DNA of 210 nucleotides from Escherichia coli (GTDB lineage Bacteria; Pseudomonadota; Gammaproteobacteria; Enterobacterales; Enterobacteriaceae). Of the stretch, positions 1-210 are shown piece after piece (the first letter of the stretch is position 1; every line of letters begins with the position of its first letter). The DNA lies in the NCBI RefSeq assembly GCF_003334785.1, contig NZ_QOWV01000096.1. One strand, written 5' to 3'. The notes under the pieces were generated by a model. It had not been told where the DNA came from and did not search any database. It saw nothing but the letters and a program-made list of their open reading frames with translations. The translations under genes were made by a program, and so were the position numbers.

Positions 1-29
1 AGAAAATATCCGGCGGGTTCCGGAGCGCC
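1..29 (-). terminator. Candidate rho-independent terminator for the reverse-strand gene
   Basis: Plus 9-13 tccgg pairs with plus 20-24 ccgga (5-bp GC-rich stem, 6-nt loop cgggtt). An alternative stem is 12-15 ggcg with 26-29 cgcc. Read on the minus strand, the hairpin is followed directly by tattttct (reverse complement of plus 1-8), six T in eight. The stem is short and the T-tract is interrupted, so this is a marginal call. Confidence 0.35.
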
Positions 30-61
30 AGTCTGTAGGTTTATCCATCAATAGAACTCCG

Positions 62-100
62 TCTAATTTAGAAGGAGCTCTAATTTAGTCTGCAAGGAGC
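62..100. repeat. Imperfect tandem direct repeat: tctaatttag + aaggagc, then tctaatttag + tctgc + aaggagc
   Basis: Exact 10-bp tctaatttag at 62-71 and 79-88; exact 7-bp aaggagc at 72-78 and 94-100. The second unit carries an extra tctgc (89-93). Seen directly in the sequence; biological role unknown. Confidence 0.6.
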
Positions 101-210
101 AGGTGTTACAGACGGCATTGGCTTTACGCTTACTTTCATCTCCAGCTTTTCCAGAACAAGCTTTCGCAATGGTAAATTTTGATCCAGTAAGCACGGTTTT
201 GGCCTTTTCG
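63..210 (-). CDS. 3' end of a protein-coding gene, truncated at the window edge; hypothetical protein, Lys/Ala-rich C-terminus with three Cys
   Basis: Reverse-strand ORF with codons running from plus 209 down to 66 and a TAG stop at plus 65-63 (plus-strand cta). Visible translation: EKAKTVLTGSKFTIAKACSGKAGDESKRKANAVCNTCSLQTKLELLLN*. The frame is open at the window edge, so the 5' end is outside. Supporting: a hairpin plus T-tract lies about 38 nt downstream on the same strand, and plus-strand alternatives lack a correctly spaced start codon. Against: no homology recognised, and other frames are also open over much of this span. Confidence 0.45.
   Translation of the reverse strand, partial: EKAKTVLTGSKFTIAKACSGKAGDESKRKANAVCNTCSLQTKLELLLN

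Follow-up and report, generated by a model that had tools for sequence, protein, structure and literature searches.

A stop-poor interval of Escherichia coli DNA at a probable junction of ISEc43 and IS30

Positions 89-172 of the 210-nt Escherichia coli sequence analysed here (the window, meaning the whole stretch) can be read through in nearly every frame, which raises the question of which strand, if either, encodes a protein there. A first-pass annotation of the window had held that composition cannot fix the coding strand, and had called the reverse strand on the orientation of a terminator-like hairpin and the lack of a usable plus-strand start. Judging from identity to annotated elements, 89-172 is not one coding region: 89-133 is the non-coding tip and leader of ISEc43, and 134-172 is IS30.

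The two elements and their junction

A blastn search of the whole window against 5,426 complete E. coli genomes matched 4,393 records, under 'transposase' annotations and over a span from position 1 to about 133-165. Window 1-133 is the same sequence as the left end of the ISEc43-annotated copies L001 and L002 (133 of 133 positions identical, no differences), and identity collapses after 133. ISEc43 belongs with IS66, IS679, ISEc8, ISSfl3 and ISKox1 in the IS66 family, whose gene set is tnpA, tnpB and tnpC, with a DDE transposase. L001 and L002 carry this set, annotated in the order 'transposase' (TnpA, 144 aa), IS66 TnpB and 'IS66-like element ISEc43 family transposase', on the minus strand in the orientation of the window; the window itself holds only codons 1-16 of tnpA. 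Against NCBIfam, the reference tnpC product scored 448 bits for transpos_IS66 (cut-off 180) and the reference TnpB scored 119 bits for IS66_TnpB (cut-off 50). The reference TnpA reached 68 bits (cut-off 74, E 1e-18) and 62 bits (cut-off 150, E 4e-17) with two IS66 TnpA models, both below the curated cut-offs, and its family was therefore assigned by synteny and annotation.

The tnpA codons, which begin the IS66-family accessory protein TnpA, occupy 1..48 on the minus strand with the ATG at 48..46. They read MDKPTDWRSGTRRIFS in minus frame 1 and are 100% identical to the annotated copies, whose CDS opens at the position matching window 48. A Shine-Dalgarno motif, GGAG, can be read off the minus strand at 60..57, 8 nt upstream of the ATG, and the corresponding CTCC at 57-60 is invariant among four related left ends. 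A promoter scan found no sigma-70-like promoter in the window, and we name no tnpA promoter. An Rfam search of the window at E values up to 10 returned only sub-threshold chance matches, to snoMBII-202 (14 bits) and ClpQY_promoter (13 bits).

The remainder of the ISEc43 part, at 49..133, is an 85-nt leader upstream of tnpA that includes the terminal inverted repeat and ends where identity to ISEc43 stops, exactly at 133. No CDS is annotated over the equivalent of 49-133 in L001 or L002, alignment shows that 1-nt indels within 84-105 separate related left ends, and the tnpA frame is shut by four stops within 85-132. These three observations together indicate that 49-133, including 89-133, is non-coding.

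The L002 element is 2540 bp long, with GTAAGCG at both tips and an 8-bp direct repeat, TGCCATTC, on each side. Since its ends lie 2540 bp apart and are flanked by the same 8 bp, the base at window 133 is the element tip. From this base the minus-strand ISEc43 part opens with GTAAGCGTAAAGCC, and the opposite end in L002 opens with GTAAGCGTCAACGG. Comparison with the right inverted repeat of L002 places the left inverted repeat at 110..133 on the minus strand, where it reads inward as GTAAGCGTAAAGCCAATGCCGTCT. The two repeats match at 16 of 24 positions, the first 8 (GTAAGCGT) included. IS66-family terminal repeats are imperfect and start with GTAAGCG, and window 133..127 reads GTAAGCG. These repeats were located through GTAAGCG and comparison of the flanks; an automatic search seeded with 8 nt missed them, imperfect as they are. 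The tip at 120-133 is nearly invariant in related elements, and GTAAGCG lies 82-93 nt upstream of the tnpA ATG in nine other IS66-family elements. The GTAAGCGT tip has been reported for other IS66-family inverted repeats, for example GTAAGCGTCCGG (PMC12888890), and IS66 has been reported to duplicate 8 bp of its target (PMC6778807).

Window 134-210 is identical to IS30 (77 of 77 positions, L003), with no similarity before 134. Searched against E. coli, this segment matched 3,948 records, always under an annotated IS30 transposase; in 3,701 of these records identity was at least 99%. The CDS ('IS30-like element IS30 family transposase') lies on the minus strand in the orientation of the window. 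Translation in minus frame 3, with codons at 208..134, gives KRPKPCLLDQNLPLRKLVLEKLEMK, exactly residues 118-142 of WP_001254932.1 (transposase InsI, 383 aa), and then diverges where IS30 continues WSPEQ. This protein scored 276 bits for NCBIfam transpos_IS30 (cut-off 80) and carries the Pfam domains HTH_38 and rve, as befits a member of the IS30 family. Unlike intact IS30, the copy in the window is interrupted after K142. By this identity, 134-172 is genuine IS30 coding sequence, read in minus frame 3, from a gene that truncation has made a pseudogene.

The earlier reverse-strand call is thereby upheld for 134-172, at 100% identity, but not for 89-133, the non-coding ISEc43 part. It was to have been overturned by a protein match on the plus strand over 103-210 with none on the reverse; the match obtained, to IS30, is on the minus strand. 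Past the join, the IS30 frame reads on into the ISEc43 end through a 17-codon tail (VSVKPMPSVTPAPCRLN; frame -3 translation, 80..133) to a TAG at 82..80. An exact-product look-up in the gene-position index returned no gene for the predicted 159-aa chimeric IS30 product. Judging from window 134-210 and L003 775-1926, truncation would spare the N-terminal HTH_38 domain of the product (Pfam 58-98) and remove its rve catalytic core (229-320).

Taken together, the window very probably straddles a nested insertion sequence junction, at which an ISEc43-type element of the IS66 family (tnpA-tnpB-tnpC, about 2.54 kb), with its left tip at 133, abuts the interior of an IS30 transposase gene. The tnpA gene and the IS30 gene have the same orientation, and the 5' part of IS30 lies upstream of ISEc43. 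We take ISEc43 as the incoming element and IS30 as the target, because the join falls inside the IS30 gene (codon 142) but exactly at the tip of ISEc43. Under this scheme, ISEc43 would have transposed into IS30 to create the junction and would thereby have inactivated that copy of IS30. The IS66 DDE transposase TnpC would have acted on the GTAAGCG-tipped inverted repeats and duplicated 8 bp, here TTTCATCT. These 8 bp of IS30 beside the element tip (134..141) are the predicted target-site duplication if the insertion was simple, by analogy with the L002 copy and with published work on IS66 (PMC6778807).

Compared with known ISEc43 copies, only the insertion site, IS30 codon 142, is unseen in the collections searched. 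No record covered at least 80% of the window in complete E. coli genomes or in PLSDB plasmids. A 33-mer across the junction had no match in GTDB representative genomes or in IMG/VR, and a junction 27-mer had none in JGI metagenomes. A junction 18-mer matched 10 times, in unrelated phyla, against about 9 matches expected by chance. Phage records held one ISEc43 end only, and no junction. A junction between two well-known insertion sequences is ordinary and already known, and in Enterobacteriaceae it is commonplace for insertion sequences to sit nested within one another.

Another possibility is that the junction is real and secondary, produced at an existing ISEc43 copy by homologous recombination between copies or by an adjacent deletion or inversion; the rest of IS30 would then be absent from the other end, and there would be no 8-bp duplication. 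Rearranged copies do exist, since the ISEc43 of L001 has differing 8-mers at its ends (CCGCGATC versus TTTCAGTT), and deletions mediated by IS66 that leave mismatched flanks have been documented (PMC6778807). The window, which shows one end, holds nothing that speaks against a rearrangement. Simple insertion is nevertheless the default, and the duplication is intact in the L002 copy. We regard rearrangement as unlikely, though a serious alternative.

Far less probable is an assembly chimera that joined reads from two repeated elements. Each element is a multi-copy repeat (median 2 places per E. coli genome, maximum 25), and the junction is absent from all other records searched, as a chimera would have it. 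However, the break coincides exactly with the biological tip of ISEc43, at the base after GTAAGCG, where a random mis-join within repeats would rarely fall, and the two elements share no sequence at the join that could have caused a collapse.

The 8 bp outside an ISEc43-type tip are alike at three unrelated sites: TTTCATCT (window 134-141), TTTCAGTT (L001 3134-3141) and TTACATCC (L015 3284-3291). This likeness may hint at a weak target preference, but the 8-mers of L002 (TGCCATTC), L016 and L017 differ.

Open frames across the join

Six-frame translation and a stop map of the 210-nt window showed that stop codons are absent from five of the six frames over 89-172. The first-pass annotation had described all three plus frames and at least two minus frames as stop-free over most of this interval, and they are open across the whole of it. 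In plus frame 1 no stop follows that at 64-66, and the frame is open from 67 to 210; plus frame 2, with TAG at 86-88 and TAA at 173-175, is open over exactly 89-172; and the stops that bound the interval in plus frame 3 are at 81-83 and 180-182. On the minus strand, frame 2 has no stop from 210 to 65 and frame 3 none from 210 to 82. The sole closed frame is minus frame 1, with stops at 138-136, 132-130, 126-124 and 108-106. Among 5000 dinucleotide-preserving shuffles of the window, 0.06% had at least five open frames at the fixed interval 89-172, and 1.1% had them at some 84-nt interval anywhere in the window. The pattern, though real and somewhat unusual, is not extraordinary given that the interval was picked post hoc.

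The join offers an explanation for this pattern. So many frames are open because 45 nt of non-coding element end are joined to 39 nt of real coding sequence, and because the minus-strand stop triplets between 106 and 138, four in number, happen to share one frame, which is the tnpA frame. Three of the four lie within 89-133, and two are TAA triplets of the conserved tip GTAAGCGTAA. A separate enrichment of leader stops in the tnpA frame (32, 19 and 14, over ten leaders that are not independent of one another) was discarded as largely these two TAA triplets of the conserved tip.

Nor does composition separate the strands, as had been claimed at the outset. First-position G content over 89-172 was 0.07, 0.26 and 0.30 in the plus frames; on the minus strand it was 0.25 in frame -3, the true IS30 frame, 0.11 in another frame and 0.37 in frame -2. 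The measure is non-discriminating and would favour the wrong frame, -2.

One conserved protein-coding frame running through 89-172 was not found: each open frame crosses the join at 133|134. Two ORFs come into question. The ORF list contains a 43-aa minus-strand ORF in frame -2 (194..63), which spans the join, and a plus-strand ORF in frame +1 runs from a GTG at 103-105, is 43 aa long from that GTG, and stops 8 codons past the window in IS30 sequence. Each crosses the join of two unrelated elements, and both are therefore artefacts. The 43-aa minus-strand product corresponds to no gene on record among 153 billion gene positions, and the product read from GTG 103-105 to no gene on record in the gene-position index.

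The window could be read instead as one minus-strand gene through 89-172, such as the 43-aa ORF, followed by an intrinsic terminator at 24..9. The ORF is indeed present at 63..194, first-position G is highest in its frame (0.37), and downstream on the same strand lies a terminator-like G+C hairpin, TCCGGAACCCGCCGGA, followed by a T-run, TATTTTCT (9..24, minus strand, found by a consensus scan). However, this ORF joins two unrelated mobile elements at 133|134 and exists only there, its frame (-2) differs from the IS30 frame (-3), and its product is absent from the gene record. The supposed terminator falls within tnpA codons 9-16, 24 nt past the start codon, and L018 and L019, which have related tnpA 5' ends, lack it. 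An intrinsic terminator, a G+C-rich hairpin plus U-tract, follows a stop codon and closes a transcription unit at its 3' end, and 24..9 has no such position. The terminator scan found 1 site in the window against 0.3 +/- 0.6 in shuffles. The hairpin is thus probably a chance feature and not a gene-end terminator, and its orientation, one ground for the earlier reverse-strand call, gives that call no footing. If the call meant the 43-aa ORF, it chose the wrong frame and a junction artefact. We consider a minus-strand gene here highly improbable.

Least credible of all is a plus-strand gene leading rightward out of the ISEc43 end from GTG 103-105, behind the AAGGAG at 94-99: plus frame 1 is open from 67 to 210 and the motif does stand ahead of the GTG, but the spacing between them is merely 3 nt, the frame ends 8 codons beyond the window for 43 aa in total, it runs antisense to IS30 and across the junction, nothing is annotated on this strand in any reference copy, its product has no record, and AAGGAGC is the complement of a hairpin arm and leader repeat on the tnpA strand. 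The same GTG, with an ATG at 169-171 in its frame, makes the second ground for the reverse-strand call, that the plus strand offers no usable start, an unsafe one.

These results matter chiefly to annotators. Where many frames lack stops over a short distance, a gene is easily called in error, and homology shows that none of the ORFs through 89-172 is a gene. What should be annotated is a truncated IS30 transposase pseudogene, the leader and inverted repeat of ISEc43, and the first codons of tnpA. Evidence such as a terminator-like hairpin or first-position G can give the right strand for the wrong reasons, and the wrong frame.

A predicted hairpin over the tnpA Shine-Dalgarno sequence

RNA folding of the minus strand predicts a 13-bp hairpin, or palindrome, at 82..52 (AGAGCUCC.UCUAA...UUAGA.GGAGUUCU), outside 89-172, whose 3' arm contains the tnpA Shine-Dalgarno GGAG (60..57). 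The 53 nt up to the tnpA ATG fold with a predicted energy of -15.7 kcal/mol (z -3.9). The whole ISEc43 left end, as minus-strand RNA, folds with -43.6 kcal/mol (z -4.93), and hairpin 82..52 forms the core of that fold. A long-range helix in the minimum free energy fold, pairing 116..107 with 39..27, was rejected, as sequence inspection showed that it is not maintained in L018 or L019.

For comparison we folded the left ends of other IS66-family elements, with TnpA proteins 33-68% identical. Together with the window, 11 leaders representing six IS66-family lineages (the window, L016, L018, L019, L021, L022, L023, L026, L028, L029 and L030) are each predicted to form a hairpin within the last 50 nt upstream of tnpA; it stops 3-7 nt short of the ATG, and across the leaders z ranges from -1.6 to -4.9 and the arm sequences differ. 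By these predicted folds, a stable hairpin containing the Shine-Dalgarno sequence has been kept across relatives despite sequence change.

Hairpin 82..52 could occlude the ribosome binding site, could act as a terminator against read-in transcription, or could be a palindromic operator. We tentatively suggest that the IS66 leader, 85 nt in the window, carries a family-wide control hairpin over the tnpA Shine-Dalgarno sequence, possibly shielding tnpA from incoming transcripts or ribosomes by occlusion or termination, or serving as an operator, with IS30-coupled translation of tnpA as a further possibility; we hold this reading to be less likely than not. Such coupling would arise if ribosomes finishing the IS30 fragment at 82..80 opened the stem and thereby tied tnpA translation to IS30 expression, and here we are reasoning purely by inference as to what might happen.

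Several features of the locus lie close to this hairpin. The truncated IS30 frame enters in the same orientation as tnpA, and its stop, TAG 82..80, lies inside the hairpin 5' arm. The UUCUAUUG tract is a candidate termination site for the leader hairpin. Direct repeats occur as well: TCTAATTTAG at 62-71 and 79-88, and AAGGAGC at 72-78 and 94-100. From the first copies (62-78) the hairpin takes its inner stem, its loop and some of its 5' arm, and immediately upstream of it come the second copies; TCTAATTTAGA is nearly palindromic by itself. The inner 13 nt of the hairpin are exactly inverted between the window and L018/L019.

Stem-loops in the 5' leaders of other insertion sequences limit transposase expression, as in the fold-back inhibition of IS10 and IS50. 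Comparable to these is the predicted stable hairpin of ISEc43 and its relatives, which includes the tnpA Shine-Dalgarno sequence a few nucleotides before the ATG, within a leader of 82-93 nt from tip to start. IS200 limits expression of its transposase through a left-end terminator and a stem-loop that occludes the ribosome binding site (PMC4513863). The predicted ISEc43 hairpin may act as RNA, by occlusion or termination, or as a DNA palindrome bound by a protein. A search for reports of leader hairpin control in the IS66 family found none in the searchable literature. A positionally conserved hairpin over the tnpA ribosome binding site could modestly inform how this poorly studied family limits its own expression.

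A diverged copy bears a further element at the same place. E. coli S56 plasmid A (NZ_CP010243.1) carries, at L015 1191-3283, an IS66-type left end whose identity to window 49-133 is 80%. In L015 the leader hairpin and T-rich tail are directly followed by a group II intron (Rfam RF02001, RF01998 and RF00029; ltrA), the boundary reading GGAGCTTTATTGT|GTGCG. Homing behind terminator-like stem-loops is known for some group II introns of bacteria. Beyond the 3' end of the L015 intron lies an IS200 left end, recognised by an Rfam STnc490 match and the TnpA Y1 motif YHIVFVPKYRR.
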